DNA of 39,927 nt from a bacterium. Its GTDB lineage: Bacteria; Myxococcota_A; Bradymonadia; UBA7976; UBA1532. Positions 1,821 through 26,482 of this stretch are shown piece by piece. Numbering within the stretch: the stretch's first letter is position 1; every line of letters starts with the position of its first letter. The translations under genes and the position numbers were made by a program. The notes beneath the pieces were generated by a model, which did not search any database, was not told the origin of the DNA, and saw only the letters and a program-made list of their open reading frames with translations. Location of the stretch: NCBI GenBank assembly GCA_030427205.1, contig JAUHXC010000011.1, positions 236,016 to 275,942 on the forward strand, in the 5' to 3' direction.

Positions 1821-1848
1821 GCGGGTTCGAGTCCCGTTTCCCGCTCCA
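1821..1848 (+). other. tRNA 3'-end-like fragment: T-stem GCGGG, T-loop TTCGAGT, stem CCCGT, acceptor 3' strand TTCCCGC, discriminator T, CCA. Putative integrase attachment core. No foldable 5' half was found upstream.
   Basis: GGTTCGAGTCC is a canonical T-loop, followed by 7 nt, a discriminator and CCA, then immediately by a terminator. The sequence resembles the 3' end of tmRNA/tRNA genes. The upstream 60-350 nt could not be folded into a cloverleaf or a tmRNA. Confidence 0.5.
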
Positions 1849-1852: not shown

Positions 1853-1876
1853 GCCCCCGATTTCGGGGGCTTTTTT
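1853..1876. terminator. Rho-independent terminator (GCCCCCG-ATTT-CGGGGGC-TTTTTT). Bidirectional: it also ends the convergent integrase gene.
   Basis: Perfect 7-bp GC stem, 4-nt loop and T6 run read directly. The integrase stop codon lies inside the T-run on the other strand. Confidence 0.75.
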
Positions 1877-3158: not shown

Positions 3159-3756
3159 TGACCATCTCCTCGATGGCGTCCCGGCGTCGCGCGACGACAG
3201 CGCCGGTGAGCTTAGGGTCGGGGCGGTGGCCGGCGCAACGTGTCAGGAACGCGTCGACGGTCGGGGCCCGGAAGAGCCAGCGCCCGCGGGGCCCGGCGCG
3301 GCCGTCGGGCACGAGCAGGCCCTTGGCGATCCACGACCGCACGGTGGAGGTCGACCCGGCGTGGGTGTAGGCGACGACGTCCTCGACGGTCATCCAGCGC
3401 GGAGGCTCGGAGGCGGGCATTCCGGGCACCCCGAGCCCGCCGGTTGCCCGGAATGAGGCCATCGGCTGGGGCTGTGCGAGCCCGAGGTGCTCGACGATGC
3501 TCGCCAGCATCGTCTCGGCCCGGTCGAAGGGGCCGACCGGGTCATCGGTTCGGCTACCTGCCGCCCACCACCAGCCGACCTCCCCTTCGTGGATGCGCAC
3601 GGTGGCCGCGTCCGCCCCAGCCCCTGGGCCATCCTCCTTGCCCACCCGCACCGCGTAGCCCCAACGGTCCAGGCTGAGCTGGAGTTGGTGGACGTCGAAT
3701 GCGGCCCCGGTGGTGAGGCCGGTGTCGTGCAGCCGAGCATGGGACGGACGCGCCAT
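2818..3756 (-). CDS. Fusion-type protein: N-terminal module homologous to a repeated module of the giant protein (ends in FRATGGLGVPGM), followed by an excisionase/AlpA-type HTH (MTVEDVVAYTHAGSTSTVRSWIAKGLLVPDG…GRWLFRAPTVDAFL). The 3' end is uncertain: the ORF runs about 340 nt into the integrase gene out of frame.
   Basis: ATG at 3756 with GGAGA 4 nt upstream. The segment GWWWAAGSRTDDPVGPFDRAETMLASIVEHL…FRATGGLGVPGM aligns with GWYWSRAWSGDFDGVGPFDRASAMLASLVERL…FRATGADGVPGM of the giant ORF. The HTH_17/excisionase-like motif follows. No in-frame stop before 2818. Confidence 0.5.
   Translation of the reverse strand: MARPSHARLHDTGLTTGAAFDVHQLQLSLDRWGYAVRVGKEDGPGAGADAATVRIHEGEVGWWWAAGSRTDDPVGPFDRAETMLASIVEHLGLAQPQPMASFRATGGLGVPGMPASEPPRWMTVEDVVAYTHAGSTSTVRSWIAKGLLVPDGRAGPRGRWLFRAPTVDAFLTRCAGHRPDPKLTGAVVARRRDAIEEMVNGEDAKDEDEVCRRVPARERRLVDPGHATRRRRTTESEAAGAAERVVDRRGGASPSSTGRRAGGRAGRGRSAGRRGPAERSPQARSEGGDDYRRRLRTVLGCDEAVAAETEHS
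3418..3455. repeat. 38-bp palindromic element, copy 1 (CATTCCGGGCACC-N12-GGTTGCCCGGAATG), in frame inside gene 2818..3756. On the minus strand it encodes FRATGGLGVPGM.
   Basis: Read directly. Arms are reverse complements, with one mismatch in this copy. Confidence 0.8.
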
Positions 3757-5040: not shown

Positions 5041-5478
5041 GTGACGATCGATGGTGGATCGGCGCTCGAACTGCGCCGACGGATAGGAGACGTGTATCTG
5101 GGCGACGAGCCCCCGCCCGGGACGAGTCGGGCGACCTGGTTGACGACGGCGCTGGCCCGCGAGCCCGACAACCTCGAGTTTCACGCGATGGCCCGCGACT
5201 TTCTCGCCGTGATTGTGCTGTACAGGCGCCTCGCTGCCGCGCTGGACGCGGTGGAGGACGCGCCGACCGGGCTGGTGCTGCACGGGCTCCTCGGCCACGC
5301 CACCGCGGAGTTGGTCGGCGCGACCCGGGAGCCTGGATGGCGAGCGGCTGCGCTCGACCTGCTCGACCCCGACGGCAAGACGCAGGCGCCCCTCGACCAC
5401 GACGACGCAGTCCGGCTGTTCGCCTTCGCGCTGGGCCTCGACCCTGACGCGGACGGGCCGTCCGATGCGACCCACTGA
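5041..5478 (+). CDS. Hypothetical protein, partner of the sigma-like gene and paralog of the partial CDS 1..246. Could be a cognate anti-sigma or co-regulator (inference).
   Basis: GTG at 5041 with GGAGG 8 nt upstream. C-terminal 65 aa about 75% identical to 1..246. Its stop overlaps the ATG of the next gene. Confidence 0.6.
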   Translation: MTIDGGSALELRRRIGDVYLGDEPPPGTSRATWLTTALAREPDNLEFHAMARDFLAVIVLYRRLAAALDAVEDAPTGLVLHGLLGHATAELVGATREPGWRAAALDLLDPDGKTQAPLDHDDAVRLFAFALGLDPDADGPSDATH

Positions 5479-6088
5479 CCCCGCAGCCGAGCGAATGCTG
5501 GGGGTCGTGCTTCGGTTGGAGTCCGCGCCCTGGCCGGGCGCGCTGTCGGCTTACGGAGCCAACCTGCTCGCGCTGTCGACCCGGTGTGAGCGGCCAGCGG
5601 CGAAGGCCGAGATCTATCGATGGTTCATGCGCGAGGGCGGCGGGGCGCTCGTATCTCGGCATGAAGAACGCTGCGCTGATCTCCGCGACGCCTTCCACGA
5701 GATGGTCGCCAAGATCCCGTGGATCCTGCTCCACTTCCGGGCGGGCCTCGACGCGGACCGGCGGCCGAACCTCAAGTCGATGCTGGTCAGGTGGATCGGC
5801 TGGCGGGCCAACGGCCTGTACGAGTCGCGGCAGCGGCACGCCTCCCGGCGGGCACCGTATCGGCTCAGTGATCAGCTCGCCCCCGGTGGGCCCGACATCG
5901 CTGCCCAACTCGGTGAAGTCCTCGCCCTCCTCGATGGGGCCGACCCGGTCACCCGCGCCCTGCGCCTCGTCGGCCTCGGCCACACGATCGCCGGTGCGGC
6001 CCGCCTCACGGGCGTCAGCCGCCAGAAGATCTATCGAGCCCGCTCGGCCTTGCAGGCGAAGGTCGAGGACGAGCCCGATCGGGACTGA
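5464..6088 (+). CDS. Sigma-70 region-4-like HTH protein (ECF-sigma-like or LuxR-type), paralog of 236..865.
   Basis: …RALRLVGLGHTIAGAARLTGVSRQKIYRARSALQAKVE is a region-4-type HTH. Collinear homology with 236..865. Translationally coupled to the upstream gene. Confidence 0.65.
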
Positions 6089-7964: not shown

Positions 7965-7981
7965 CGGAATCTCTCCAGGTG

Positions 7982-10711: not shown

Positions 10712-11365
10712 TCAGTACAGGTCCTCGTCGTCGTCCAGCTCGATGAGCGCGTCGCCCTCGACTTCGAGTGCGCCGACGGTCATCGCCTCCTCCTCGGTCT
10801 CGCGGTGGGCCTCGGCCAGATTCTTGAGCTTGTCGACCGCCCCGCGGATGTCGTCGTCGATCTGGTGGTCGAGCTGCTCGAGGTCGTCGACGCCCAGCTC
10901 GCCCGGCTTCTTGCGGGTGATCGCGCCCAGGCCCTGCGTCGCCCCGCTGTCGGGCCCGCTCTCCATGAAGTAGATGATCGCCAGGGTCCACGCGGAGACC
11001 CCCGACGCTTCGAGCCCGGCCGCCTCACGGTGCTTGCCGTGGTGGCGCGCGCGGCGGGCGAGCACCCCCGTGATGACGGTGAACGCCACCATCACCATGC
11101 CCCGCGAGGTGGGGCTCAGCTTGGCCCACCACTCGGCGCTGCCTCGACGGGCCATGCCTTCGAGCAGCCCGAGCGCCGCGGCCGAGAGACCCGCGCCGGC
11201 GAGCTTGAAGCCGATGCGGGCGGCCTCGCCCATGTCATTGCCATTGGCGACCACCAGACGGGCGGTCTCCTCCTTCTTCTTCGCCGGCGCCTTGTTCTTG
11301 GGCCGTTCCAACGTGCGCGACATCGCTGTCTCCTCGTCGCTGGGGTTGACGATGGTGGTGAACAT
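10712..11365 (-). CDS. Small membrane protein (2-3 TM segments) with an acidic C-terminal tail.
   Basis: Its ATG at 11365-11363 shares one nucleotide with the stop of the giant gene (TGATG). Hydrophobic segments AARIGFKLAGAGLSAAALGLL, MVMVAFTVITGVLA, AWTLAIIYFM. Confidence 0.6.
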   Translation of the reverse strand: MFTTIVNPSDEETAMSRTLERPKNKAPAKKKEETARLVVANGNDMGEAARIGFKLAGAGLSAAALGLLEGMARRGSAEWWAKLSPTSRGMVMVAFTVITGVLARRARHHGKHREAAGLEASGVSAWTLAIIYFMESGPDSGATQGLGAITRKKPGELGVDDLEQLDHQIDDDIRGAVDKLKNLAEAHRETEEEAMTVGALEVEGDALIELDDDEDLY

Positions 11366-14300
11366 CAGCTCGCGCTCCGGTAGCGATGGCGCACGGTGCC
11401 GATGACGGTGCGGGGCACGCCCGCGGGGACTCTGCGTTCGTTTGCGGCGTAGGCGCCGGTGAGATCTCGGGCGGTGAGGACTGCCGCGACAGCGTTGGTG
11501 CCGTCGGCGGCGATGACGATGCCAGCGTCCTGGACCAGCTCGGTCGCGCGGACATGGACCGCGTCGCCGCCGACCAGCTTGCGGTGGCGGGTCGGGCCCA
11601 TGCCGTTGTTCTCGACCTTGACGATGACCACCAGCGGGATATCGGGCGGCACCTTCTTCTGGAGCGCCTGGGCCGCGCTCATGCGCCGGGTCTGGTCGAG
11701 CCAGACGAGGCGCTGCGCGTGGTCGATGCCGAGCACGAGGTAGCTGCCGATGGGGGTCTGGGGCGGAAGCTGCATACCGTCTCCGTAGGGATCGGGGGCC
11801 ATCGCCCGGCTCTGCGGTCGGCGATGCGATGGGTTCGTGCGGGTGCGCTGCATGCCCGGTCGCAACGGGCGGCCCCACCACCACTTGCTGGTGTCGTCGC
11901 GCAGCGCGTACTTGTGCTCGTCGTTGGCGGCGAGGCGCAGCCAGCGCGCCCAGCCGGCCTGGGTCGGAGGCAGCAACACCGCCCCCTCGGGGGGCTTGCC
12001 GCCGCGCCGATGTATGTAGACCTCGCCGTTGAGGTCGAAGGGGAAGCGGGTCTCGGCGGGGCCGTAGTTGCTGCCGAAGTAGCTCGCCCGGATGCTGGCG
12101 ATCTCGGCCTTGGCGGTGGCCTCGACCCGGGGCCACGCGGTCTCCAGCCATGCGGGTGCCGCGTGGGACCAGCCCATGGCCTGCCAGCCGCGGTAGGGGT
12201 TGGCGATGGTGCTCTTGACCAGCCGCTCGACGCCGTCGGTCCAGTTGTCGGCGACGTCGGCGGGCCGCGTGGGCGAGACGTCGTCGTCCGTCTTGTCGCG
12301 CGCGACGTTGGCGACCTTGTGGCCCTCCCACGAGGCGTCCCCGGCGAGGCGCAGCCAGATCATGCGGTGCGTACCCTGCCAGCCGAACCGGCCGACCTCG
12401 TACCAGTCGTCATCCCAGCGCAGCCACGAGCCGGGGAACAGCGGCGGGGTGCCTTGCCGAGCGAGGATGTCGTGCGCGCCGGCCTTTCGCGCGGCGGCGA
12501 GCAGCCCGGCCCACGGCCAGATGTCGCGGTCGATGCGGGCCACGGCGTCGAACGCGGCGTCGGCGCCGGCCAGCAGCCGCTCGGCGCGCTCGGGGTCGAC
12601 GGCGTCGCGAGCCTCGACGAGCTGGCTCGCGCCCGATTCGAGCAGCTTGATCGCCCGCGCGGCTTCATCGGCGCGGCGCTTGGCCTCGGCAGCCGCCCGC
12701 AGCTTGTCCAGGCGCTTGCGGGTCTCGTCGGGCGTACGGCTGATGAGCAGCAGCACCTCGTCGGGGCCCAGCTCGAGATCTGCTCCCGGGTTGGCGATGG
12801 CGTCCGAGCCCTCCAACAAGGCGCCCATCCAGCCCTGCTTGCCCTGGATGAGGTTGAAGCGCAGCCCGTCCATTGATCGCCGCGAGAAGTAGTAGCGGAT
12901 GGCGACGGTCGAGAGCGTATTTCCCTGCCGTACCGCCCGCCCGTTGCGCTGGTTCAGCGTCGCCGGCTCCCACGGGAGATCGGCGTGGTGGATGGCGCAG
13001 GTGCGCGTCTGAAGGTCGAGGCCCTCGTAGGCGATGCTGTTGGCGATCACCACGTCCAGCTTGCCCTCGTTGAAGCGGTCGGCGATGCGCTGTCGGGCGT
13101 CGCTGCTCTTGGCGAGCTGGCCGTTGAGTACGCCGATGCGGCTCGCCTTCAAGCCACGCTTGACCAGCGTCTCCTTGAGCCATCGGTGCCCGGCGATGGC
13201 TTGTAGGAAGACTATGTGTCCGCAGAAGGTGTTGCCGGCGATGTAATCGGCGATGGCATCGAACTTCGGGCTGTTCGGCCGGTAGCCCTGCGCCGACTTG
13301 TAGTCGAGGCCCCGGTCCATCTCGGCGTGCACGGCTACCAGACCCATGCGCGCCAACAGGCCCAGCACCTTGTTCGACTTGTCACCCCGTCGCATCGCAT
13401 CCAGCTCGGCCTCGATGCGGGTGACGTAGGTCTCGTACTTGTCTTCCTGCGCCTCGTCCATGTCGACCTCGACCAGCTCGGTCGTGGGCTCGGGCACTTC
13501 GAGGCCGATGTCGGGGGGCTGGATGAACTCGCCCCAACGCAGCAGGATCGCCTTCAGCTCGTCGAGGCGCTGGAAGCCGGTCACCGCGGGGCGCTCGCTG
13601 GCCTCCATCGTGGCGTCGATGACGAGCCGCGGTTCGATCGTCAGGAAACGGCTGATGAACGCCTCGGGGTCGTGGATCCCGTGGTCGCGCCACAGCTCGC
13701 CGTTGACGTAGCTCCACAGGTTGTAGAGTTCGAGTGGGCTGTTCTTCGCGGGCGTCGCCGAGAGCAGCACGACGAAGCCGTCGCGGGCGCGGACGTCCCG
13801 GGCCCGGGCGTCCAGATTCCACGCGCGCTTGCTCGCCGATGACTGCCCCATGAACCGCGGGATGCTGCCCTCGCGGTTCTCCGGGCTGTGCAGGCCCTTG
13901 TAGTTCTGCGCTTCGTCGACGATGAGCAGATCGACGCCCAGCTCGGACCAGCGGATGTCATCGGCCTTCCAGCTCGGCGGCAGCTCCATCATCTGCGCCA
14001 GGAAGGCCCGCACGCCCTGCTCGAGCAGCGCCTGCTGCCGCTCGGATGGGTTCGTGCGGTTGCGCGCCGTGCGCTGGGCCAGCCGGACCGACCGCTGAAG
14101 CTCGGTGGCGCCGGCCGCCAGCCGCTCGAACTCGTCGGCGGTGATCCCGGTGCGCATGAACGCTGCGGGGGTGACGAGGGCCAAGTCGTAGAGCCCTGCG
14201 GCGAACCGGCGCCACTTCACCTCGCGGTCGTCCTTGTTGTCCGGCCCGTACTTCAGCCCGCCGTGCCGGCCTGGGGTCGCCTTCTCGCCGATGGTCACTA

Positions 14301-17300
14301 CTGCGTAGTCGGGCAGCGCCTTGTGGATGTCGCGCTGCCACTTCGACACGAGGCTGTTCGGGACCAGGATCACGGGCCGGCGAGTGCCCACGTTCTGTCG
14401 GGCGAGGGCGACCGTCGCGCAGGCGGTGAACGTCTTGCCAACGCCGACCCCGTAGGCCGCGACCATGCCCCGCTGGTCCACCGCGCGCCGGGCGCCCGCG
14501 TTCTGGTGGGGGTGGGGGGTGATCTGGGCGCCCCAGCGGGCGAGACGCAGCGGGTCGCCCGAGTAGCGGCGCTGCACGAACCCGCGGTGCGCTCGGCGAT
14601 ACGCCTCGGCCACGCGGTCGCGAATGTCGGGCCGGGTCGACAGGAACGCCTTGAACCGGCGCTCGAACTCGTCGGCCTTCGCCCGCCGGACCTTGTTGAT
14701 GTCCTCCGACTTGGGCTTCTTCGGCCGGAAGACGTACTCGTCGTGGTTGATGTAGCCCAAGATCAGCCGGATGGACGACGTGTTCGCGAACCGGTCCGTG
14801 ATGTCGTCGTAGCTGTACTTCTCGCCACGAAACTGAACGACGCCGTCCTTGCGGTCGATCGCGACCGGCGTCTTCTCACCACGCCGGAAGGAGCCCAGGA
14901 ACGCGCCGATGACGCCGAGCGGGAGCCACCCGTCCCGCAGGCTGATGCGGTCGGCGATGTCGGCGAAGCTCACGTCGCCGATCGCGTCCTCCAACTCCTT
15001 CCGCTGGCTGTCGGCAACGTGCCGATAGTTGCTGGGCAGGGCTTCGAGGCGATCGAGGCGCGTCCACAGGTTGCCGGACAGGTAGTCGTCGCGCGGCAGC
15101 AGGCGGTTGGCGTCCAGGCGCCAGCCCCTGCGCAGCAGATCGTCGACGTTGGCGACCCGGTCGAGGGGCACGCCGGCCGGGTGCATCGTGAGCAGTTGCC
15201 GGGCGTCGCTCACATCCAGCGCCAACTCGGGGATTCCGACCGGCGCTTCCAGCGTCGCCAGCCGCCGGCCGAAGATCTCGGCGAAGGCGTCGAGGGCGCC
15301 GGCGAGTTCGGCGTGCAGCATCATCCGCCGGGTCGTATCCGATGCCTCATACTGCGCCACCCGCTGCGACAGGACCGCGGCGAGCTGGCCCTCGTCGGGG
15401 CCCTTCGGCGGGGCCGGCGGGGGATCGGGCTCGGTCGGCAGGCACACCGCGCACGACGGATCGGCCACGGGCGCGATCAGGTGGCGCTCGCCGTCGGCGC
15501 GCTCGATGACCGTCGGCGCTGTGCCCGCGCCGAGCAGGAGCCGGCCAGTGCGCGCGCCGTTGAGCGCCATGCGCAGCCGGGGCAACTCGAAGGACCATTG
15601 GCCGCTCGCCGATCCCGGGGCGACCCGCGCGCCGCGGAGGAGGGTGCCGTCGAGCAGGAGCCGCACGCCGTCGACCTCGAGGGCCGCCGGGCTGGTCGTC
15701 ATCTTGCGCAGCCGGTTGAAGAGCGCGCCGAGCGGCGCCGGGTCGACGGTCGCCACCGGATCGGCTGGGCGCAGCAGCTCGGCAGGGTCGGGGTAGTCGA
15801 CATCGAGCGCCCGGCCATCGGGGTCGACCACCCGCATGGGGTCATCCTCGGCGCCGTGGGCGAGTTCGATGAGGTTCTGCCCGTCGGTCGCGAGCACCAG
15901 CCCGCCGCCGACGCGGATGCCACGCAGCACGGGATCATTGGGGTCGGTGAAGAACTTCGCCCGCTCGATGGCCGCCGCCAGATCGGGCGCGACCTGGCGC
16001 TCCATCTCCACGTCGCGCAGCCCGGCCGGCAGCCCTGCCTTGCGCGGCTTGCGCGGCTTCCACGCCCGGCCACTGTCCATCTCCAGGTTCGCGAACCCAG
16101 GCGCGAGCGTCTTCTTCGGCTGCGGCTTCGCCGGGCCCTCGTCGTCGGACTCGATCGAACGGCGCGAGATGATGGGGCGTCCGGCCACTTCGACGAGCTG
16201 CTCGACGTCGCTGAAGCGCATCGGCGCGACCATGTGCCGCTCGCCGTCGGCCCGGTCGAGGACCAGCAGGTGGTTGCCCCACTCGATCCCGCGCTCGGTA
16301 TCGCGCCCGAGCACCCGCACGGTGACCGACCCCTTGGCCTTGGCGAACATCGGCCGGAGGTAGGCCCGATCGAGCTTGGTCAGCAGGTTGGCCCCGCGCG
16401 CCGGCCCGATGTGCCGCTGCAGCCGCTTGTTCGCCGCCGAGCCGGGCTCGACGTAGAGCTGCCCGTCATGCACCCGCCAGATGGGGTCGCTGGTCAGCGC
16501 CTTGTTCAGCAGCGCGTCCCGCAGCGCCTTCACGTCGGCGGTGGCGACGACCGCAGGCTCCATCTCCTCGATCCGCTGCAACAGATCGACGGTCATGTTC
16601 TGGTCGGCGGTCGGCCAGCCCTCGGCCAGCTTGCCCTTGCGATCGAGCCACTGCTGCTCGCCCCGGTGATCCGTCGGGATCTCGACCAGCCGCACCATGC
16701 TGCGCCCGATGGCCCGACCCTGCGTATGCCAGACCGTCGTCAGCAGCGGCGCTGTCTTCTGCGTGCCCGCGAACCGCACCGCCCGGCGCTGCGCGGCGGC
16801 CTTCGACTGCCGCGGCCGGCTCTCGTCGATCGGCGGCATCTTCGGCGCCGGCAGGGCGATCGGCTCCACCGGAGGCAGCAGCCCGCGGTCGTCGCGCTCG
16901 GAGACCCCGAAGCGCACCTCAGCGACCTCGACCCCGTGGCGCCGGGCGTGGCGCTCGAACGCCTCCTGAACGCGCTCGGTGACCATGTGCGGCGCGGGGT
17001 AGGCCTCCCGGACCTCGATGACCCACGGCCCACGGTGGAACCCGGCCAGGACCTGCATCGCCCCGTCGAGGTTGAGCGCCTGCGGCTGGAGTGTCGACGC
17101 ATCGAACAGCGGGATGACGTCGCTCGACCCCGCCCGCCACGCGAATACGCCTCGGCCGGGCGGCACCGTCGGCTCGCCACCCGACTGCACAGGCTCGACC
17201 GGCTGCGCCATCTCGAAGCGCAGCGCCTCCGCAAACCGCTTCACGTCGCCGGGCCCGCCGCCCGTCTTCTCCATATGCGCTGTCGCGACGGCTTGCGCCG

Positions 17301-20300
17301 CCTCCGACGGGTGGATGCCGTCGGCGACCAACTCGGCGAAGACCTCCTGCGGCGTACTCCAGTCGAGCCCGTGCATCGCGCGGCCGAGCAGGCCCGGCGT
17401 GCTGCGCACCACCTCGGCCTCGACCACCGGCGTCGACGCTCGGCTCGGCCGCGCCGGCCACCCCTTCGCTGGCCGGCGGCGGAGCTGAAGCGCGGGCGCG
17501 GCACCACCCCCGACGTCGAGGCTCGCCCCCGGCGCGAGCGCCTGCACCTTGGCGCACAGGTGCCGGTCCTCGGCGTTCGACGCGCAGAAGTCGGCGACCG
17601 AACTCTCCCACGCCATCGTCCCGTCGGGCTCGTAGCCTCGGAGCGCATCCGGGCGATCGTCCACCGGTCGGACCGACCGCGGGGTTTCGCGCAGCACCTT
17701 GCGCCCGGCGTCCGTCAGCCGCAGATGCACGGCCTTCGGCGACACCGCCACAACCCGGAGGAAGCCGGCCTGCTCCAGATCGGGCAGGTGCGCCCGCACC
17801 GGATCGTCGCCGAGCACCATCGCGCCCCACTCGTGCACCGACACTAGATCCGCGAGCGGCGGGCGCTGCATATGGGCCAGTCGGGCACCGAACTGCGGCG
17901 CGCGCACGTCGACCTTACGCGCCTTGCGCCGCCCGCGCTGGGCCTGGATCCGATCGTTCCCGGCGACCACCGCGTCCCGCCCGCGACGCAGCCGGGCGAC
18001 GTAGTCCCACACCATCTCGCGGGTGAGCCCGTCCCGCTCGAACTGCCCGGTCTGCTCGTACCGCTGCGCCTTGCGAATCGTCGCCTTCAAGCCTTCGAGG
18101 GCCTCGCGCAGCAGCTCTCGCCGGACCTTCTTCGTACGCGGGCTGCGCACGATGTCCTCGACCGCCGCTCGCCAACCGTCGGCATCGGTCAGCGGCACCG
18201 CGCCGCCCTGGAACCGCTTGCCCCGGTTGTGCGCCTCGTCGACGTCCCGCATCAGCGCCCGCAGCGTGCGGAACGACGGCGTGGCGATGGCGTCGGCGTA
18301 TGCATCGACGGATGGCATGGGCGTGTCAGCCGGCGGCTCGGCCTCGTCAACGACCCGCGGCGTGAAGTCCGGCAGGCCCGCGTACTCGCCGATGACCTCC
18401 TCACCGCCCCAGCGGCCGGACGGCTTCACTTCGCCGAGGACATGGCTCGGGTGGTCATCGAAGTAGCGCCCGCTGACGAACAGATCGTCCGGCGACGCCT
18501 TTGCGCCCGAACGCGCCCGCAAGAACACGACGTCGAGGGTCAGCCGGGCTCCGGGGAACAGCCCCGACGGCAGCCGGAAGGCCGCGAGCAGATCGGCCCG
18601 CTCGTCGACCCGGCGCCGCAGCTTCCCGTTCGATGATCCCGTCAGGAAGCCGCCGGGCACTAGGAAGGCACCGACACCGCCCGGCCGCAGCAGCGCCATG
18701 CCGCGCAGGATGAAGTACTGGTACGCCGCCTTGACCCGGAACCGGCGATCCTTGTCCTCGGTGATCTGCTCGCCGCGGGGGCCGTAGGGCGGGTTCGAGA
18801 CGATCACGTCGAAGCGGGCGTCGGGGTTCGCCTGGACCCAGCTCTCGAACGAGCCGACGTGCACCGCCGTCGAGGGCGTGGCGGTCTGTCGGAGGATGAG
18901 CGCCGACAGCGGCGCCAGCTCGACCGCGGTCCACTGCCAGTCGGGGAAGCCCGCGACATGCACGAACCGCCCGACGCCCGCCGAGGGTTCGAGGGCCTGG
19001 ATCGCCCCCGGCTTCACCAGCCGTCGAACGGCCGCGGTGATGTCGGCGCAGACCTTCCACGGCGTGTAGTACTCGTGGACCAGCGCCCGCTTGTTCGGCA
19101 GCGGGATGCCCGCCGGCCAGTCGTCGCGCACCTTGTCGATGCTCAGGCCGCCCCAGCCGCTATACTGGCGCATCCGCTGCACCTGGGCCGCGGTCGGCGT
19201 CGTTCCCGATCGCTCCAGCGCGTGTGCGAGCTGCACCGCGAGGATGTTGCCCCGCGTCCGCGCCGCGGGCGTCTCGGGGGCCTCGGGCCACTCGCTCTCG
19301 GCGCCGCCCGACGCCATTCCGGGCAACCCGTCCGATCCGGTTGCCCGGAATGGCGTGTCCGCCGACCCGTTCACCGCTGCCAGGAACCGCCGGGCTTCGG
19401 CCTCCGAGCCGAATACGAACCCGGGCACCGCGCCCCCGCGCCGATAGCGGCTGAAGTAGCCCGATGGCACCGGGCTATCCGGGTCGGCGGCCTGCTTGGC
19501 CAGCACCGTGAGGGCCTTGTACCGCTCGCGCGGCAGGCGCTCGATCAGCCGCACGGTCCAGATGTCGTGCCCGTCGCGGGTATGGCGACCGGCGATCAGC
19601 TCGAACCCCTCGGGCGTCTTTGGGGCCGTGGGGGTCGGGGCAGGCTCTCTCGTCGGCGCCGAGGGCTGTACCGCGACCGGCGCGGGCGGTCGCGGCTTGG
19701 GCTGAGCTGGCTTGGGCGTCTTGGGCGTCTTCGGCGCCTCCGCTGGCCCGCGTACCAGCCGAGGGCGTGGACCGCCGCGCCGCCGGGCCATGCGGAACGC
19801 GCGGTTCAGTACGTCCTCGGCCTTCTCCCGGGTCCCATCGGGCAAGTCCTCGACCAACCGCCGCGCCGTCTCGGCGAAGAAGGCGTCGATCACCTGATCG
19901 TTCGTCGCGCCGCGAGGAGCGACCCAGCTCATGGTCCGGTGCTTGTCGGTCCAGACCTCGAATCCGCTCTCGACCCGCTCGCGCCGGAAGCCCGACGTCA
20001 GCCGGCGCCGCAGCCCGCCGCGATCGAGCCCCCGCTTGCCCTCGCCGCGCGAGATGCGGATGGCGTCGAGCAGCCGCGCCCGCTGATCTTCATCCAGCCG
20101 CAGCCGGTAGCGACGCATCGCTGTGTTGATCGGCTCGACCGCCAGCAGGAACCCGGGGTCGGCCTCGACCGCCTCGACCTGACCAGCGGGGTTCACGTCG
20201 ACGAACTCCACCGGCAGGTGCAGTTCGAGCCCGTCGGGCAACGCGCCGATCGGGTAGACGGCCGTACCGCACACGACCCAGACACCGCGGGTCGGCCGGT

Positions 20301-23300
20301 TGAGCCGGGCCGCAGCCTCGCGGATCATCCACGCGGTGTGACCGGCCTCGGCCACCTCGGCGGGCGGCTCGCCCACGTCGACCCGCAGGGTTTGCTGATC
20401 GCCCTTGGGCATTCCGGGCAACCCGACCTCTCCGGTTGCCCGGAATGCCGGGGTCGCTGCCGGCTGGTCGTAGAGCTCGAGGGCGGCCCGCCGCGCGGCG
20501 GCGAAGCTGCGATGATCGGGGCCGACGATCTTCCAGCGGCCGCCGACCGACTGCTCGACCCGATAGGCGCCACGCTTGCCGCTCTTGCTGAACCGCACGC
20601 GCTTGTCGGGCGACGTGTAGACCGGCGGCTTCGTACCGCTGCGGGTCCACGTCTTCATCGCCGCCTGAACGTCGAAGACCGAGCGGGGTTGCGCCGCCGG
20701 ACCGTCGTTCGCGGTCAGCGCGGCGATCCGGTCGGCCAGCCACTTCTTGCGCTCACCGATGCCCTTGCCGGCGAGCGGCGCGAGCAACGTCAGCCCGAGC
20801 GCCTGCGCCGGCTTGGCCAGCAGCTCGACGTAGGCCCGCGACGCGATGACCTCGACCACGGCGCCCCGCCCAGCGAGCCGCGCGAGCGCGGGGCTCACCT
20901 GCGCGACCCACGCGGCGCGCTGCTCGCCCGTCAGGTCTTGCGCCCGCTTGTCGTACGGCTCGACGGGCTCGTCCGGCCCGACGACGCCGAGCCCGGCCGA
21001 GACGATCGCCCACGGCAAGCCTCGGGCCTCGGCGTACCGACGGCGCAGATTCCACAGCGCCCCGCGGTACAACGCCTGAGCTGCGACCGGCCCGGAGGCG
21101 ACCTTGCTCTTCACGCACCCGACGAGCACAAACGTCGGGTCAGCGGCGGACTCGGCGGCCATTCCGGGCACCCCGTCCGCTCCGGTTGCCCGGAATGCAG
21201 CACCGTCCAGGGGCAGCCGCTCGACAAGGCTCGCCAGCATCGCGCTGGCCCGGTCGAACGGCCCGACCCCGTCGAAGTCACCGGACCACGCGCGGCTCCA
21301 GTACCAGCCGTCGTCCTTGAGGTTGATGGTGACCGTGGTCTCGCCGCCGCCGTTGTGGCACGTCACCACCCGCAGTGTGGCGGTCATCGCATGGAAGACC
21401 GGGCAGCCGTGGTCGCGCAGCCGGTACTTCAGCCAGCGCAGATCGAAGCCCGACCCCTCGTTGGTGGGGGGCTCGAAGAGCGCGGTGACCAGCCGGCCGA
21501 CGGACTGCCCGATCTCCCGATCGGTGCCGGTCTGGCCGTTGTTCTCCAAGGTCCAGGCAGGCTTGCGCTGCCACCAGCGGTCGCTGATGACCTCGGCCTT
21601 AGCCAGTCGGGCGACCACCGGCGCGTCGGCCAGTGGCGAGAGGTCGATGCGGTCGCCCACCTTCGCGACGGCGAGCAGCTTGCGCATCATCCGGTGAGTC
21701 ACGGCGCTGGCGGCCCGGCCAGCGTCATCGATCTCGCCCGTACGGGGGATCGACGCCAGTGGCCCGATCTCGGCCGACGGGGGAGGTTGCCCCGTCGCCT
21801 CGACCGCCGCCCGTCGAGCAGTGGCGAACTTCTCCGGCCCCGCGTGGATGGTCCAGGTCCGGCCGGCGCCGAGTCGCAGCACGTACCACCGCTTGCCCGC
21901 GCGTAGCACCACGGTACCCCCGTCGGGCGCGATGTGGACCTTCGTCCCGTCGCTGGGGTGCACGACCGATCGGAACTCGTAGGCGTTGGCCGCCTTCGGC
22001 GCGGTCTGCCGAGGCCGCAGGGGCACGGTGTTGTCGACATAGGCCGCGTACCACCCCAGGTTCACGAGGTTGACGACCCGGGCGGCGGTCCACCGCTGCC
22101 CGCTCTGGTCGCGGAAGACGGCGCCCTCGAACTGCGCCTGCTCACCCGTCGCGGTCAGCGCCCATCGCGGGCCGTCGGGCGCGGCCACGAACAAGCGTCG
22201 CACCTTGCCGACCTCGCTCAATGTCGAGACCGGGTGCGCGTGGGGTGGGATCGACGGCGCTGGCCCCGGATGCGGCGGTGCGCCGTAGATCTCATCGGGC
22301 ACCGGCGCCGCCGGCTCGTCGACCGCCGGGATGGTCGGCGGCGGGCTCTCGGCCATCACCTCGGCCGCCCGATCCCGCGCGGCGATGTAGAGCTGGACGT
22401 CCGCTGCTGTAGCCATCGGCTGGGCCAACTGCTCGCGGGCGAAGGTGTGCACCGTTCGAGCGGCGTCATGCCGACCTTGCGCCTGCTCCTTCCTGGCGAT
22501 CCGCTCGTCGGCCCACCGGCGACCCTTCGCCGCTCGCACCTGGGCCGCGTCGAGCCAGCGCCACGCCCGCTCTCCGTCGACGGTGGTCGCCTCGAACGGG
22601 ATCGGCATGTCGTGCGTCTCGCGCATCTGCACGGTGCGCTCGACCAGTCGCTTGATCTGAGCTGGCGTCCAGCCGCACCGCTCGTTCAGCGCCGAGACCC
22701 GCACGGTGCCGGCCTCGGCCACCGCGATGAGGAACCGCCGCTGGTCGCCGTCGAGTACGTGGTCGAAGGCCGCCGCCGCCGGCCAGTGGGCGGCCAATCG
22801 CTGCGACGCTGCGGGCCCGACCGCGCGGGCCACCGCGTTCATCGGGATCAGCACGGTGCGCTCACCACGCCGCTTCGGCCGGAACCACGCTCGCCCCGTG
22901 GGCCCGTCGACCCGCCAGGGCCCGTGCCGCTCTCCGCGGCGGTCGACGATGCTCATCAGCCCGTCGTCGTGAACCTCGACGACCTCGAACCGGTTGAGGA
23001 TCTCGGTCACGAACCAGTCGCCGAGCGCCACCGTGAGCGACTCGCTCGTAGCGGTTTCGGCCTCGGCCACCGGCTCGGGCGGCTTCAGCCCCATCCACTC
23101 CCACGTCCGCTCGCCCCGTAGTCGACTCTGCTTCACCGGCAGAGGCATGCCCTTGCGCTTGAGCCCGCGCAGCCGCTTCAGCGCCCGGTCGATCGCCTCG
23201 ACCGACCACCCCAGCCGCTCCGTCAGGTCCGACTCGGTGGCGAAGTTCAGGTCGGCGAAGGCGATCATCAGCCGCCGCAGCTCCGCATCGAGCCAGCCAC

Positions 23301-24174
23301 CGAAGCGCCGTACGTCGAACCAGTACAGCGCCAGCCGCCGGGGGTCGTCGTCGGTGAGGGCCTTCGCGGTGGGATTGACGGGCACGAACTCGGCGCGCCG
23401 GTCGAGCAGTCGCGGCCGGAACCATGCGTGCTCGGCGCCAACGGTCCACGGTCCGATCCGACCGCCGCGGCCGTCGCCGACGTGCACCCGGTCATCGCGG
23501 TGCACCTCGAGCACGACGTAGGTGTCGAAGTCGGCGGTCACCAGCCGATCGCCGTCCTGCAGGCCTTCCCATCCGCGCCAGCGCCACGACGGGCGACCGC
23601 TCGACTTGCCCTCGATGAACGGCACCCGGACGCCGACCTTGAACGCCCAATCGACGACCGCCTTGGCGATGTGGCCGATCGCGCTGTCGCGCTTGAGGCC
23701 AAACGCCTTCAGCGCCTTCGCCTGGGTGAGCGCCCGCTTGCTCTCCTGAACCAGCGCCAAGAACCGCCGACCCCGCGCCGGCAGGTCGTCGAGCGGCACC
23801 GGAGAGCCCACGGGTTCAGCCGACTGGCTCGGCCGCCGCGGAGCGGGGCTCTTCGTCGCCGCCGGCTTCCTTGTCGTGCGGGTCTTCTTCGCCGCCGGCT
23901 TCTTCGCTGCGCGGGTCTTCTTCGCCGTGCTCGGCGCCACCTCCCGCGCGCAGCTCGGCACCGCCTGATCGGTCTTCCGATACCGTCCGGCGCCGACTTC
24001 CTCGATCGCCCCGCGGGCCACCATCTGCGACGCCATCCGCCGGGTATGCCCCGCGTACCGGTGGCACGCGCTCGCTTGCAGCTCATCGAGGCTGAACACC
24101 TCGGCGACCCGGCTCAGCACCTCGCGCTGGCGCACGGTCGGCGCCCGCTTCGCGGTCTTCGATCGACGGCTCAT
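11365..24174 (-). CDS. Giant multidomain protein (about 4269 aa). N-terminal basic, histone-H1-like tract; repeated approx 100-aa modules (…VVEVH…GPW…AWFRP…); three modules ending in FRATG-x3-(L/V)PGM; N6-adenine DNA methyltransferase domain; C-terminal SNF2-family helicase. Methylase-helicase type protein as found in phage and plasmid anti-restriction proteins.
   Basis: MTase motif I EPSAGVGRF and motif IV VIVSNPPYG. Helicase motifs I AAYGVGVGKTFTA, II LLIVDEAQNY, III LLSATPAKNSPLELYNLW, VI QRNGRAVRQG. Likely ATG at 24174 overlapping the stop of the upstream gene (ATGA). The long antisense ORFs on the plus strand are interpreted as shadows of this gene. Confidence 0.85.
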   Translation of the reverse strand: MSRRSKTAKRAPTVRQREVLSRVAEVFSLDELQASACHRYAGHTRRMASQMVARGAIEEVGAGRYRKTDQAVPSCAREVAPSTAKKTRAAKKPAAKKTRTTRKPAATKSPAPRRPSQSAEPVGSPVPLDDLPARGRRFLALVQESKRALTQAKALKAFGLKRDSAIGHIAKAVVDWAFKVGVRVPFIEGKSSGRPSWRWRGWEGLQDGDRLVTADFDTYVVLEVHRDDRVHVGDGRGGRIGPWTVGAEHAWFRPRLLDRRAEFVPVNPTAKALTDDDPRRLALYWFDVRRFGGWLDAELRRLMIAFADLNFATESDLTERLGWSVEAIDRALKRLRGLKRKGMPLPVKQSRLRGERTWEWMGLKPPEPVAEAETATSESLTVALGDWFVTEILNRFEVVEVHDDGLMSIVDRRGERHGPWRVDGPTGRAWFRPKRRGERTVLIPMNAVARAVGPAASQRLAAHWPAAAAFDHVLDGDQRRFLIAVAEAGTVRVSALNERCGWTPAQIKRLVERTVQMRETHDMPIPFEATTVDGERAWRWLDAAQVRAAKGRRWADERIARKEQAQGRHDAARTVHTFAREQLAQPMATAADVQLYIAARDRAAEVMAESPPPTIPAVDEPAAPVPDEIYGAPPHPGPAPSIPPHAHPVSTLSEVGKVRRLFVAAPDGPRWALTATGEQAQFEGAVFRDQSGQRWTAARVVNLVNLGWYAAYVDNTVPLRPRQTAPKAANAYEFRSVVHPSDGTKVHIAPDGGTVVLRAGKRWYVLRLGAGRTWTIHAGPEKFATARRAAVEATGQPPPSAEIGPLASIPRTGEIDDAGRAASAVTHRMMRKLLAVAKVGDRIDLSPLADAPVVARLAKAEVISDRWWQRKPAWTLENNGQTGTDREIGQSVGRLVTALFEPPTNEGSGFDLRWLKYRLRDHGCPVFHAMTATLRVVTCHNGGGETTVTINLKDDGWYWSRAWSGDFDGVGPFDRASAMLASLVERLPLDGAAFRATGADGVPGMAAESAADPTFVLVGCVKSKVASGPVAAQALYRGALWNLRRRYAEARGLPWAIVSAGLGVVGPDEPVEPYDKRAQDLTGEQRAAWVAQVSPALARLAGRGAVVEVIASRAYVELLAKPAQALGLTLLAPLAGKGIGERKKWLADRIAALTANDGPAAQPRSVFDVQAAMKTWTRSGTKPPVYTSPDKRVRFSKSGKRGAYRVEQSVGGRWKIVGPDHRSFAAARRAALELYDQPAATPAFRATGEVGLPGMPKGDQQTLRVDVGEPPAEVAEAGHTAWMIREAAARLNRPTRGVWVVCGTAVYPIGALPDGLELHLPVEFVDVNPAGQVEAVEADPGFLLAVEPINTAMRRYRLRLDEDQRARLLDAIRISRGEGKRGLDRGGLRRRLTSGFRRERVESGFEVWTDKHRTMSWVAPRGATNDQVIDAFFAETARRLVEDLPDGTREKAEDVLNRAFRMARRRGGPRPRLVRGPAEAPKTPKTPKPAQPKPRPPAPVAVQPSAPTREPAPTPTAPKTPEGFELIAGRHTRDGHDIWTVRLIERLPRERYKALTVLAKQAADPDSPVPSGYFSRYRRGGAVPGFVFGSEAEARRFLAAVNGSADTPFRATGSDGLPGMASGGAESEWPEAPETPAARTRGNILAVQLAHALERSGTTPTAAQVQRMRQYSGWGGLSIDKVRDDWPAGIPLPNKRALVHEYYTPWKVCADITAAVRRLVKPGAIQALEPSAGVGRFVHVAGFPDWQWTAVELAPLSALILRQTATPSTAVHVGSFESWVQANPDARFDVIVSNPPYGPRGEQITEDKDRRFRVKAAYQYFILRGMALLRPGGVGAFLVPGGFLTGSSNGKLRRRVDERADLLAAFRLPSGLFPGARLTLDVVFLRARSGAKASPDDLFVSGRYFDDHPSHVLGEVKPSGRWGGEEVIGEYAGLPDFTPRVVDEAEPPADTPMPSVDAYADAIATPSFRTLRALMRDVDEAHNRGKRFQGGAVPLTDADGWRAAVEDIVRSPRTKKVRRELLREALEGLKATIRKAQRYEQTGQFERDGLTREMVWDYVARLRRGRDAVVAGNDRIQAQRGRRKARKVDVRAPQFGARLAHMQRPPLADLVSVHEWGAMVLGDDPVRAHLPDLEQAGFLRVVAVSPKAVHLRLTDAGRKVLRETPRSVRPVDDRPDALRGYEPDGTMAWESSVADFCASNAEDRHLCAKVQALAPGASLDVGGGAAPALQLRRRPAKGWPARPSRASTPVVEAEVVRSTPGLLGRAMHGLDWSTPQEVFAELVADGIHPSEAAQAVATAHMEKTGGGPGDVKRFAEALRFEMAQPVEPVQSGGEPTVPPGRGVFAWRAGSSDVIPLFDASTLQPQALNLDGAMQVLAGFHRGPWVIEVREAYPAPHMVTERVQEAFERHARRHGVEVAEVRFGVSERDDRGLLPPVEPIALPAPKMPPIDESRPRQSKAAAQRRAVRFAGTQKTAPLLTTVWHTQGRAIGRSMVRLVEIPTDHRGEQQWLDRKGKLAEGWPTADQNMTVDLLQRIEEMEPAVVATADVKALRDALLNKALTSDPIWRVHDGQLYVEPGSAANKRLQRHIGPARGANLLTKLDRAYLRPMFAKAKGSVTVRVLGRDTERGIEWGNHLLVLDRADGERHMVAPMRFSDVEQLVEVAGRPIISRRSIESDDEGPAKPQPKKTLAPGFANLEMDSGRAWKPRKPRKAGLPAGLRDVEMERQVAPDLAAAIERAKFFTDPNDPVLRGIRVGGGLVLATDGQNLIELAHGAEDDPMRVVDPDGRALDVDYPDPAELLRPADPVATVDPAPLGALFNRLRKMTTSPAALEVDGVRLLLDGTLLRGARVAPGSASGQWSFELPRLRMALNGARTGRLLLGAGTAPTVIERADGERHLIAPVADPSCAVCLPTEPDPPPAPPKGPDEGQLAAVLSQRVAQYEASDTTRRMMLHAELAGALDAFAEIFGRRLATLEAPVGIPELALDVSDARQLLTMHPAGVPLDRVANVDDLLRRGWRLDANRLLPRDDYLSGNLWTRLDRLEALPSNYRHVADSQRKELEDAIGDVSFADIADRISLRDGWLPLGVIGAFLGSFRRGEKTPVAIDRKDGVVQFRGEKYSYDDITDRFANTSSIRLILGYINHDEYVFRPKKPKSEDINKVRRAKADEFERRFKAFLSTRPDIRDRVAEAYRRAHRGFVQRRYSGDPLRLARWGAQITPHPHQNAGARRAVDQRGMVAAYGVGVGKTFTACATVALARQNVGTRRPVILVPNSLVSKWQRDIHKALPDYAVVTIGEKATPGRHGGLKYGPDNKDDREVKWRRFAAGLYDLALVTPAAFMRTGITADEFERLAAGATELQRSVRLAQRTARNRTNPSERQQALLEQGVRAFLAQMMELPPSWKADDIRWSELGVDLLIVDEAQNYKGLHSPENREGSIPRFMGQSSASKRAWNLDARARDVRARDGFVVLLSATPAKNSPLELYNLWSYVNGELWRDHGIHDPEAFISRFLTIEPRLVIDATMEASERPAVTGFQRLDELKAILLRWGEFIQPPDIGLEVPEPTTELVEVDMDEAQEDKYETYVTRIEAELDAMRRGDKSNKVLGLLARMGLVAVHAEMDRGLDYKSAQGYRPNSPKFDAIADYIAGNTFCGHIVFLQAIAGHRWLKETLVKRGLKASRIGVLNGQLAKSSDARQRIADRFNEGKLDVVIANSIAYEGLDLQTRTCAIHHADLPWEPATLNQRNGRAVRQGNTLSTVAIRYYFSRRSMDGLRFNLIQGKQGWMGALLEGSDAIANPGADLELGPDEVLLLISRTPDETRKRLDKLRAAAEAKRRADEAARAIKLLESGASQLVEARDAVDPERAERLLAGADAAFDAVARIDRDIWPWAGLLAAARKAGAHDILARQGTPPLFPGSWLRWDDDWYEVGRFGWQGTHRMIWLRLAGDASWEGHKVANVARDKTDDDVSPTRPADVADNWTDGVERLVKSTIANPYRGWQAMGWSHAAPAWLETAWPRVEATAKAEIASIRASYFGSNYGPAETRFPFDLNGEVYIHRRGGKPPEGAVLLPPTQAGWARWLRLAANDEHKYALRDDTSKWWWGRPLRPGMQRTRTNPSHRRPQSRAMAPDPYGDGMQLPPQTPIGSYLVLGIDHAQRLVWLDQTRRMSAAQALQKKVPPDIPLVVIVKVENNGMGPTRHRKLVGGDAVHVRATELVQDAGIVIAADGTNAVAAVLTARDLTGAYAANERRVPAGVPRTVIGTVRHRYRSAS
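19315..19352. repeat. 38-bp palindromic element, copy 2 (CATTCCGGGCAAC-N12-GTTGCCCGGAATG), in frame in the giant gene, encoding FRATGSDGLPGM.
   Basis: Read directly. 13-14 bp perfect arms. Confidence 0.8.
20410..20447. repeat. 38-bp palindromic element, copy 3, in frame in the giant gene, encoding FRATGEVGLPGM.
   Basis: Read directly. Perfect arms. Confidence 0.8.
21160..21197. repeat. 38-bp palindromic element, copy 4, in frame in the giant gene, encoding FRATGADGVPGM.
   Basis: Read directly. One arm mismatch (GTG for TTG), the same as in copy 1. Confidence 0.8.
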
Positions 24175-24745
24175 CGCAGGATCCCGTGGGCATTGATGGT
24201 GAAGTTGCTCGGCCCGCGCTCGATCTGCCCGGCCACCAGCCGCGGCCCCGGCCGGTCGAACGGATGGCGCCACCATGCGTCGGTCGAGCCCTTGCGGGTG
24301 TCGTAGACGATCGCGTCGATCACGCCCGCCGGGCTCTCGGGCGCCACCCCGCCCTCGGCGACCAGCCACAGCTCGTCCATGACCGCCGACGTCACGAGCC
24401 ACACCGGCCCACCGCGCGGCTCGACCTCGACCCCGCCCCGCAGCTCGATGCGCACCAGCCGGCCCAGCTCGACCAGATCGCCCGGCGCCCCGTCCGGCCG
24501 CCGCACCGCGCGCTCACCGCCCGGCTCCAAGCCCCAATGCAGCAACCGCCACGTCTCCTCGACCGGCTGGCGCACCTCGACCGACTCGACCGCCGCCTCG
24601 ATCCCGGCGACCGCCGCCCGGACTCCGGCCCCCACGAGCCGCAGCCCATCGCCGCGCTCGACCCGCACCGCGCCCTCGGGCACCAGCTCAGTGCCGTCGA
24701 CGAGGCGCAGCCGGACCAGCTCGCCGATATCGGTCCAGCGCGCCA
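24171..24745 (-). CDS. Hypothetical protein (191 aa), translationally coupled to the giant gene.
   Basis: ATG at 24745 overlaps the upstream stop (ATGA). Its stop overlaps the giant-gene ATG (ATGA). The longer N-terminal extension in the ORF track is Arg/Gly-rich and overlaps a better ORF, so it was discarded. Confidence 0.5.
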
Positions 24746-26446: not shown

Positions 26447-26482
26447 ACCAAAAATCGGGGGTCCGCGATTTTTCTCGGCGGG

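Follow-up and report, generated by a model that had tools for sequence, protein, structure and literature searches.

Phages and plasmids widely use, as weapons against host restriction, polyvalent proteins that join a DNA methyltransferase (MTase) to an SNF2-type helicase. To our knowledge, DarB of P1 is the only one of them that has been studied experimentally. Their class, the DNA methylase-helicase dyad, was described by Iyer, Burroughs, Anand, de Souza and Aravind in 2017 (PMC5512222), with P1 DarB as the archetype and with LPD36, which carries a GxGU motif, as the constant N-terminal partner of the methylases; the same survey of 131 polyvalent-protein domains mentions no clamp. Here we describe a giant gene of this kind in a 39,927-nucleotide stretch of a Bradymonadia genome (GCA_030427205.1, contig JAUHXC010000011.1, positions 236,016 to 275,942), which we call the window. 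Its product of 4269 amino acids (aa) is, we think, more probably than not a DarB-like LPD36-MTase-SNF2 dyad polyvalent protein on an integrase-bearing element of ~26 kb, with the function proposed below. The basic class was already known; what is newer here is a probable clamp-like insert, linkers encoded by a DNA palindrome, and an element without recognisable phage or conjugation machinery.

The methylase-helicase core and its relatives

Pfam recognised the methylase and helicase domains of the giant protein (Table 1), and the motifs EPSAGVGRF, (S)NPPYG, GVGKT (Walker A), DEAQ, SATP and QRNGR are all intact in the translation, so the first-pass annotation of this DNA was right to place an N6-adenine MTase and an SNF2 helicase in one protein. 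Just N-terminal to the MTase, in a stretch conserved throughout the family, lies YSGWGGLS (aa ~1671), whose agreement with the motif described for LPD36 points to a putative LPD36-like domain. Judged from these motifs and domain matches, residues 1635-1950 and 3000-4105 form an intact gamma-class N6-adenine MTase coupled to an intact SNF2-type DNA translocase. The ParB-like domain that the same annotation had proposed checking for was not found in the giant protein by Pfam searches. Searches of Pfam, NCBIfam, PADLOC and PDB sequences found no peptidase in it, including the MPTase type, and no nuclease family, a divergent member of which is possible in the unassigned regions.

Among PHROG families, the giant protein matched phrog_11801 ('DNA methyltransferase', 2e-160), phrog_1685 (4e-127) and phrog_10089 ('DarB-like antirestriction', 3e-82), with three stretches aligning to the 4647 positions of the last profile. 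A tblastn search with residues 1500-4269 returned 2143 plasmid records and 146 phage records, the latter mostly annotated as DarB-like and including Burkholderia Bcep22, DC1, BcepIL02 and BcepMigl, Klebsiella 'PLxRFG' proteins and Thermus phage Lalka8. The earlier assignment to a DarB or anti-restriction type is thus upheld. The view that a protein of this size would be unusual is not, since gp75 of Bcep22 (47950..61758) is annotated at 4602 aa, the phrog_10089 profile is longer still, and one orthologue reaches 4921 aa.

The window protein resembles other dyad polyvalent proteins (PMC5512222) in the order of a putative LPD36-like domain with GxGU, an NPPY gamma-class MTase and an SNF2 ATPase, in being encoded by a mobile element, and in collecting many unrelated accessory domains, some also found as stand-alone small proteins, in one polypeptide. 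Unlike them, it has an insert of ~1000 aa with a probable DnaN-like region between MTase and helicase and no MPTase peptidase; its accessory set (an array of winged helix-turn-helix (wHTH) modules, and DUF6884) also differs, and delivery by a virion or a type IV secretion system (T4SS) is not evident. With P1 DarB, which is packaged in the head, has DarA/Hdf-type partners and protects in cis against type I restriction, it shares the homologous dyad only, and no DarA-like neighbour of the giant gene was detected in the window. Bcep22 gp75 and the proteins of DC1, BcepIL02, BcepMigl and Klebsiella (PLxRFG) are likewise giant, share phrog_10089 with it and contain the same core (tblastn identity 23-26% over ~40% of the query). 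However, this identity does not reach beyond the dyad, all N-terminal and middle modules being unrelated, and these proteins, unlike that of the window, sit among tailed-phage structural genes, the DC1 homologue being annotated with a lytic transglycosylase domain.

Closer relatives fall into two groups. More than 100 proteins of ~1700 aa (P0003-P0120), mostly from metagenome-assembled genomes of Myxococcota or 'Deltaproteobacteria', match only residues 1635-1950 and 3000-4105, that is the MTase and the helicase with the C-terminal region, at 43-47% identity. They too lie in integrase-bearing islands, but have no counterpart of the first 1630 aa, of the ~1000-aa middle insert or of the tail at the C-terminus, and their neighbours are not homologous to those in the window. 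The second group is orthologous: the operon around the giant gene recurs beside integrases in nine other loci (L002, L004, L005-L007, L009-L012), in the order transglutaminase-core gene, small genes, giant gene, genes for 217-241, ~305, ~137, ~118, ~320-350 and ~270 aa, and integrase. The giant protein differs in length among these operons, at 2930 aa in L002, 3013-3020 aa in L005, L006, L009 and L011, and 4921 aa in L012. The ~3000-aa orthologues match residues 1-78 and 1488-4268, with 52-66% identity over the second stretch; apart from one module in L002 they have no counterpart of residues ~80-1488, and none carries the 38-bp palindrome described below. The series of ~1700, 3000, 4269 and 4921 aa illustrates module accretion.

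Two of the orthologues are of separate note. In L012 (positions 1-8649; GCA_030426085.1, JAUHYW010000071.1) the C-terminal 2770 aa of the 4921-aa protein align to residues 1628-4268 at 52-59% identity. In L002, the closest metagenomic orthologue, a frameshift that falls exactly on the Walker A motif of the helicase (L002 9195-9238) breaks the gene into reading frames of 1944 and 989 aa; it may be either a pseudogene or the product of an assembly error. No plasmid or phage DNA nearly identical to the window came up in a megablast search, and a scan of genome contigs for homologues returned one distant helicase only.

Accessory modules, a probable clamp-like insert and a palindrome

By alignment with the orthologues, the addition specific to the window protein is residues ~80-1488, comprising the basic tract, the wHTH/beta array, DUF6884 and other modules. 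It sits between the conserved N-terminal domain, which is 57-64% identical to the N-termini of the L002, L004 and L005 proteins, and the small pre-MTase domain (aa 1523-1607), which is also conserved in those three; at the position of the basic tract the orthologues carry unrelated KG-rich, low-complexity linkers. A repeated N-terminal region of ~1900 aa had been described on first reading. The repeats stand, residues 181-361 and 342-541 being ~35% identical in self-BLAST (E 6e-18; 250-360 against 429-540 in the fragment self-BLAST), but ~1630 aa precede the MTase module and they are only partly repetitive. The basic tract and the PKTPKTPKP linker (aa ~1481) noted at the same time are both present. 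Within the array there is a weak match to MarR_2 (aa 477-516). The Trp-rich domain is shared with the Xis-like protein of the element, and is visible as a nucleotide repeat (3482-3543 against 21212-21273, 82%).

DUF6884 (PF21818) has a YaaA-like 'cantaloupe' fold with CxxxK and LSAxxG motifs, is related by Pfam curators to the DNA-binding YaaA, and is predicted to flip bases at lesions (PMC11701544). The domain in the giant protein keeps CVKSK (CxxxK, aa 1020-1024) and VSAGLG (LSAxxG-like, aa 1058-1063), and the region also matches PADLOC PDC-M57A and phrog_5935; it is in keeping with the DNA-directed theme of the other accessory modules. Comparison with the relatives shows that the lineage added such DNA-directed modules (wHTH, basic tether, wHTH/beta array and DUF6884) around the core.

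In the clade of giant proteins, ~1000 aa separate the MTase from the helicase. An exhaustive HMMER search with residues 1950-3000 against 1.84 billion representative proteins gave only 13 matches, of which the two strong ones were both orthologues; the remainder were stand-alone small proteins (P0124-P0133, 63-375 aa) covering short sub-domains at aa ~2180-2320. Two such sub-domains lie there (nucleotides 17230-17640), and other genomes encode homologues of them as separate proteins of 63-159 aa (P0124-P0131), a pattern consistent with small effectors having been fused into a polyvalent protein. A word-index search with the middle insert gave no matches and was uninformative, since true relatives exist, and a metagenome scan with the insert alignment found no match.

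The conserved part of the insert, common to the orthologous operons, is probably a clamp region like DnaN, the beta sliding clamp. The domains of DnaN are each built of two beta-alpha-beta-beta-beta units, and its protomers have three domains and form a ring. An AlphaFold2 (AF2) model of residues 2337-2935, built from three sequences, had a mean predicted local distance difference test score (pLDDT) of 57, with blocks at 70-85, and contained two domains of beta-alpha-beta-beta-beta x2 topology. All of the top 50 Foldseek matches in the PDB were DnaN (50/50; E 4e-7 to 3e-5, probability 1.00, template modelling score 0.2-0.3). The strand 'DGERH(M/L)(V/I)AP' is repeated at the ends of both clamp-like domains (aa 2633-2652 and 2884-2903). 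A sequence-profile search of the PDB found no DnaN, so the likeness is a fold-level lead and not demonstrated membership. A probable sliding-clamp-like module between methylase and motor suggests topological tethering to DNA or the hijacking of clamp-binding host factors. Two further observations concern the insert. Its disordered linker (~15960-16110, aa ~2688-2727) contains two to three repeats of the motifs 'LAPGFxxLEM(E/D)' and 'LPAGLxxVEME', conserved in L004 and L005, which may be short linear docking or cleavage motifs. The N-terminus of P0081 was considered as a clamp-like domain and set aside (hhalign probability 0.3 against the insert profile).

The first-pass annotation had also reported three modules ending in FRATG. 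Three such motifs are present (aa ~996, ~1246 and ~1611), but as the translation of a DNA palindrome and not as the ends of protein modules. The palindrome is 38 bp long with a 16-6-16 geometry and the consensus CATTCCGGGCAACCGG-N6-CGGG(G/T)TGCCCGGAATG (also written CATTCCGGGCAACCGG-N6-CGGGkTGCCCGGAATG), and its four copies, the fourth of which lies in the Xis-like gene, are all translated in one frame as FRATGxxG(L/V)PGM in inter-domain linkers of the two genes. Eight half-sites were observed against 0.8 expected by chance. Nucleotide conservation among the copies ends sharply at the unit edges, the arms use codons that are rare in the giant gene (GCA, 4.6% of Ala; GGA, 6.2% of Gly; TTG, 8% of Leu), and the codon just before them always has A at its wobble position. 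The FRATG peptide is therefore best seen as a by-product of a DNA-level element; given the peptide, the codon set has a probability of ~6e-5 per copy.

The palindrome was absent from the nine related loci, including the homologous linker before the MTase; exact-pattern scans of viral and Joint Genome Institute (JGI) metagenome contigs gave 0 matches, and no target-site duplications were visible at the copies. Its hairpins were rejected as intrinsic terminators, there being no T-run after them on either strand. It is like the Rickettsia palindromic elements and bacterial miniature inverted-repeat transposable elements (reviewed in PMC10969869) in being a short, bounded palindrome repeated in coding sequence and translated in-frame between domains. 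It differs in having a unit of just 38 bp, four copies that share one frame and lie within one element, and no visible target-site duplications, and may also be likened to protein-binding or recombinase core sites with 16-bp arms. Candidate roles are a site that binds a protein or resembles a recombinase core, a joint for recombination, a mini-repeat carried in frame and an mRNA structure. We offer only tentatively, as a rather doubtful proposition, that the DNA of the palindrome is itself what is selected or propagated, within this element alone, as a cis-acting site or a recombinogenic joint. On one reading it would resemble a recombinase core or dimer operator bound by the integrase, the Xis-like protein or the wHTH array of the giant protein; on the other it would be a joint at which the giant gene gained modules and exchanged them with the Xis-like gene. 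Each reading, if true, would show how polyvalent proteins grow or target the DNA of their own element, and the linker palindrome gives a testable lead to how such proteins find their own DNA or acquire modules.

Proposed function and alternatives

By analogy with P1 DarB and with the case made for the class by Iyer et al. (2017), the giant protein would act on the DNA of its own element when this is newly in a cell. The SNF2 translocase would move the methylase along duplex DNA, adenines would be modified before host restriction, and the additional DNA-binding and clamp-like modules might tether the protein to DNA or engage host DNA-repair or replication factors. The outcome would be processive methylation of the element, allowing it to evade restriction on entry. 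Several points weigh against this proposal. MTase and helicase are ~1000 aa apart, in a class described as nearly always directly fused (PMC5512222), and the giant protein has no detected MPTase-type peptidase, which polyvalent proteins often carry. The clamp assignment comes from a pLDDT-57 model built from three sequences, and sequence profiles give it no support. No capsid, terminase, tail, T4SS, relaxase, FtsK/TraB-like protein, replication initiator or second nucleoside triphosphatase (NTPase) was recognised in the element, nor any other virion or packaging gene, leaving no evident route into a new cell; the earlier suggestion of an injected or transferred protein accordingly keeps the standing of a supposition.

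The giant protein might instead be the element's own DNA-transaction machine, a motor for replication, segregation, packaging or transfer and not an anti-restriction effector. Its wHTH array would recognise element sites, its clamp-like region would encircle the DNA, SNF2 would give the force and the palindromes would be the cis sites. It is the sole recognisable NTPase of the ~26-kb element, which has no replication initiator, terminase, FtsK/TraB-like protein or relaxase that we could find; its gene takes up half of the element; the four element-specific palindromes are conserved at the nucleotide level, and multiple wHTH modules stand beside a predicted DnaN-like fold. We nevertheless regard this as unlikely. 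The MTase-SNF2 dyad is known from anti-restriction and not from replication or packaging, and many genes of the element have no detectable homology, so missing functions may go unrecognised. The palindromes and the wHTH array are, moreover, absent from orthologous elements that keep the same operon, and so are not essential to the conserved mechanism.

A defence or exclusion system of benefit to the host, similar to restriction-modification (R-M), DISARM, BREX or Type ISP systems, in which the MTase would mark self and the SNF2 module would sense or attack foreign DNA, is decidedly improbable. It is prompted by partial PADLOC and NCBIfam matches to DrmD, BrxHI/II, ZorD and MTase_I over the helicase C-domain and the MTase core, by the match of DUF6884 to the PADLOC candidate PDC-M57A, and by the common presence of defence genes on integrative elements. 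However, the DrmD match reached 71.4 bits against a curated cut-off of 610 and aligned only residues 3654-3768 (~115 residues); DrmA, DrmB, DrmC, PglZ, BrxC, a nuclease or a PLD domain was found neither in the giant protein nor in any neighbour; and the best full-length relatives are the DarB-like proteins of phages and plasmids. Membership was rejected for DISARM, the DrmD match being partial and the partners DrmA, DrmB (DUF1998) and DrmC (PLD) absent from the neighbours, for BREX, with partial model matches only and no BREX partner in the neighbourhood, and for single-polypeptide R-M (Type ISP or Type IIG, Eco57I-like), whose enzymes combine an Mrr or PD-(D/E)xK nuclease with a target-recognition domain, the Pfam, NCBIfam, PADLOC and PDB sequence searches having detected no nuclease family and the neighbourhood having no R-M partner. 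A defence system is disfavoured by these failed tests.

The giant gene is real, with one intact coding frame, as had been stated for a single uninterrupted minus-strand frame of 4269 aa. The third codon position has a GC content (GC3) of 0.87-0.95, the highest of the three, in 55 of 55 sliding windows of 150 codons, giving no sign of a hidden frameshift, and the orthologues align collinearly in one frame over residues 1488-4268 (52% identity); on these results the frame is neither an artefact of high GC nor made up of pseudogenes fused together. An NCBI contig already carries a gene call for the identical product of 4269 aa, which is the sole member of its 90% identity cluster. The open reading frame (ORF) is listed as 4345 aa from a GTG (11365..24402, minus strand), and as 4269 aa from the ATG at 24174. 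We take the ATG as the start because the conserved N-terminus M..R..(R)APTVRQREVL also begins the orthologues, because GC3 in the in-frame extension upstream is 0.53 against 0.90 for the gene, and because it shares an ATGA with the stop codon of the gene upstream. This overlap, and that of the giant stop with the downstream start as TGATG, had been pointed out as signs of tight coupling, and both are present. That the frame results from a chimeric assembly, or is made of fused genes or pseudogenes and merely looks continuous, is extremely improbable and is rejected: spurious long ORFs do arise in high-GC DNA, one of 1319 aa lying on the opposite strand (13888..17847, plus), and the L002 orthologue is split by a frameshift, but against this stand the GC3 maximum in every window, the collinear orthologues, the intact catalytic motifs, and intact orthologues of 3013-3020 and 4921 aa.

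The element and its genes

The features discussed are collected in Table 1. The operon runs on the minus strand from ~26.4 kb to ~7.2 kb, with the transglutaminase-core gene, three small genes and the giant gene followed by genes for 217, 307, 133, 118, 322 and 260 aa; L002 keeps the synteny of the whole set and L004-L012 that of a part, the transglutaminase-core gene being the most conserved. Their tight translational coupling suggests that the giant protein is made, and possibly processed, together with conserved small proteins, the papain-like transglutaminase-core protein among them. The elements would form a compact integrative family in Myxococcota-like bacteria, with no recognisable mode of transfer. 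That the element is integrated, as first annotated, agrees with the presence of an integrase, an Xis-like gene, a Cro/CI-type helix-turn-helix (HTH) gene and a tRNA 3' fragment.

Table 1. Features of the giant gene, its product and the surrounding element, in window coordinates
Feature	Residues (aa)	Nucleotides	Strand	Evidence and remarks
Giant gene		11365..24174	-	4269 codons plus stop; single open frame; GC1/2/3 = 0.73/0.52/0.90
wHTH-like N-terminal domain	1-80	23935..24174	-	Kept in all orthologues; weak Pfam AbiEi_4, E 0.0066
Lys/Ala/Pro-rich AKKP-type basic tract, histone-H1-like	~83-125	23800..23928	-	Read from sequence
Array A-B-A-B-A: three wHTH-like (A) and two beta-rich 'VVEVH..GPW..AWFRP' (B) modules	~130-545	22540..23787	-	Window-specific
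Module shared with L002 orthologue	548-728	21991..22533	-	48% identity to L002 residues 161-345
Small Trp-rich domain	~915-993	21196..21432	-	Also N-terminal domain of the Xis-like protein
DUF6884	1016-1147	20734..21129	-	Pfam 97.4 bits vs cut-off 30, E 1e-27
Small domain AGRHTRDGHDIWTV...GFVFGSEAEARRF	1523-1607	19354..19608	-	phrog_15406 1e-14, phrog_11358 1e-13 (very large phage proteins); present in all orthologues
Putative LPD36-like helical domain (GWGG = GxGU motif) and gamma-class N6-adenine MTase	1635-1950	18325..19272	-	Pfam; 43-46% identity to ~1700-aa family
Eco57I / N6_Mtase	1759-1887			Pfam 37.5 bits (cut-off 25.3) / 32.6 bits (cut-off 20.4)
First part of insert	1951-2336	17167..18324	-	Small sub-domains also found as stand-alone small proteins
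DnaN (beta sliding clamp)-like region, probable	2337-2935	15370..17166	-	AF2 and Foldseek; split by disordered linker
Pre-helicase region and SNF2-type ATPase	3000-3800	12775..15177	-	Pfam; 45% identity to >100 ~1700-aa proteins
ResIII	3222-3292			Pfam E 0.0015, below cut-off
SNF2-rel_dom	3469-3603			Pfam 30.9 bits (cut-off 24.9)
Helicase_C	3654-3751			Pfam 44.9 bits, above gathering score
C-terminal region	3801-4269	11368..12774	-	Family-conserved to aa ~4105, then clade-specific tail
Palindrome copy AFRATGADGVPGM	~995-1006	21160..21197		
Palindrome copy AFRATGEVGLPGM	~1245-1256	20410..20447		19-nt arms 95% complementary; RNA hairpin -44.3 kcal/mol, z = -6.3
Palindrome copy PFRATGSDGLPGM	~1610-1621	19315..19352		18-nt arms 100% complementary; RNA hairpin -48.3 kcal/mol, z = -5.9
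Palindrome copy SFRATGGLGVPGM		3418..3455		Linker of Xis-like ORF, outside giant gene, near integrase
Transglutaminase-core (papain-like) protein, 168 aa		25902..26408	-	Pfam Transglut_core 1.9e-7; 78-80% identity in L002, L004
Upstream gene		24171..24575 (start 24575 or 24746)	-	Stop overlaps giant ATG; conserved in L002, L004
Downstream gene, 217 aa		10712..11365	-	Start overlaps giant stop; conserved in L002
Downstream genes, 307, 133, 118, 322, 260 aa		7182..10671	-	Synteny with L002, L005-L007, L009-L012; no PHROG/PADLOC matches
Cro/CI-type HTH		4605-4907		
Xis-like ORF		2818..3756	-	Trp-rich N-terminal domain, palindrome-encoded linker, HTH_17 (Pfam E 2e-4, below threshold)
Tyrosine integrase		1875..3158	-	Pfam Phage_integrase 2.8e-19
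tRNA-like 3' fragment (T-arm, acceptor, CCA)		1818..1848	+	Followed by GC-rich terminator hairpin and T-run to 1874, adjoining integrase stop

The clade-specific tail of the giant protein is common to P0001 and P0081. Structure prediction of the 307-aa neighbour was uninformative. In the 260-aa product (7182-7964, minus strand) a collagen-like stretch, GPAGPAGEP, precedes a C1q/TNF-like beta domain (C1q in Pfam at E 0.004, short of the threshold), and its L012 homologue gives a weak Collagen match; the resemblance is to fibre or receptor-binding proteins.

The Xis-like ORF overlaps ~340 nt of the integrase ORF (2818-3158) in a different frame, with an Arg/Gly-rich tail that does not look like coding sequence. 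Its 3' end is probably not all coding, which makes the end of this gene or the start of the integrase uncertain. The tRNA-like fragment beside the integrase is a probable remnant of an attachment (att) site. It gives a weak match to a transfer-messenger RNA (tmRNA) T-arm; ARAGORN found no complete tRNA or tmRNA in the window, Rfam found no family there, and no second att copy was seen in the window. An identity with the tRNA-Pro beside the element of a further locus, L003, was rejected on comparison.

A 31-nt repeat (minus strand TTGTCCGCGTATCGATTCnCnTCCGTA) occurs at 3768-3798, 26419-26449 and 27303-27333, in each case 15-45 nt ahead of a gene start, those of the Xis-like, transglutaminase-core and 261-aa genes, three minus-strand units. 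It was not found in the related loci, and by its placement probably serves the element as a shared promoter or operator. Two paralogous HTH genes on the plus strand (89..865 and 5213..6088) are 80% identical at the nucleotide level over 210 nt (24-233 against 5250-5459). One lies inside the element and the other to the left of the tRNA fragment, which suggests that a second related element, or a remnant of one, abuts it.

To the right of ~27.7 kb the genes look like ordinary chromosomal ones (PI-PLC, FGE-sulfatase, a caspase-like protein, cation efflux and AcrB). Positions 35440-39868 of the window correspond to L003 1-4653, with a neighbourhood of AcrB-type transporter, S-adenosylmethionine (SAM)-methyltransferase and cation-efflux genes in both. 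In L003 this neighbourhood adjoins an MTase-SNF2 island with an unrelated operon, and the 9.4-Mb genome to which it belongs has three paralogous dyad proteins of ~1600 aa.

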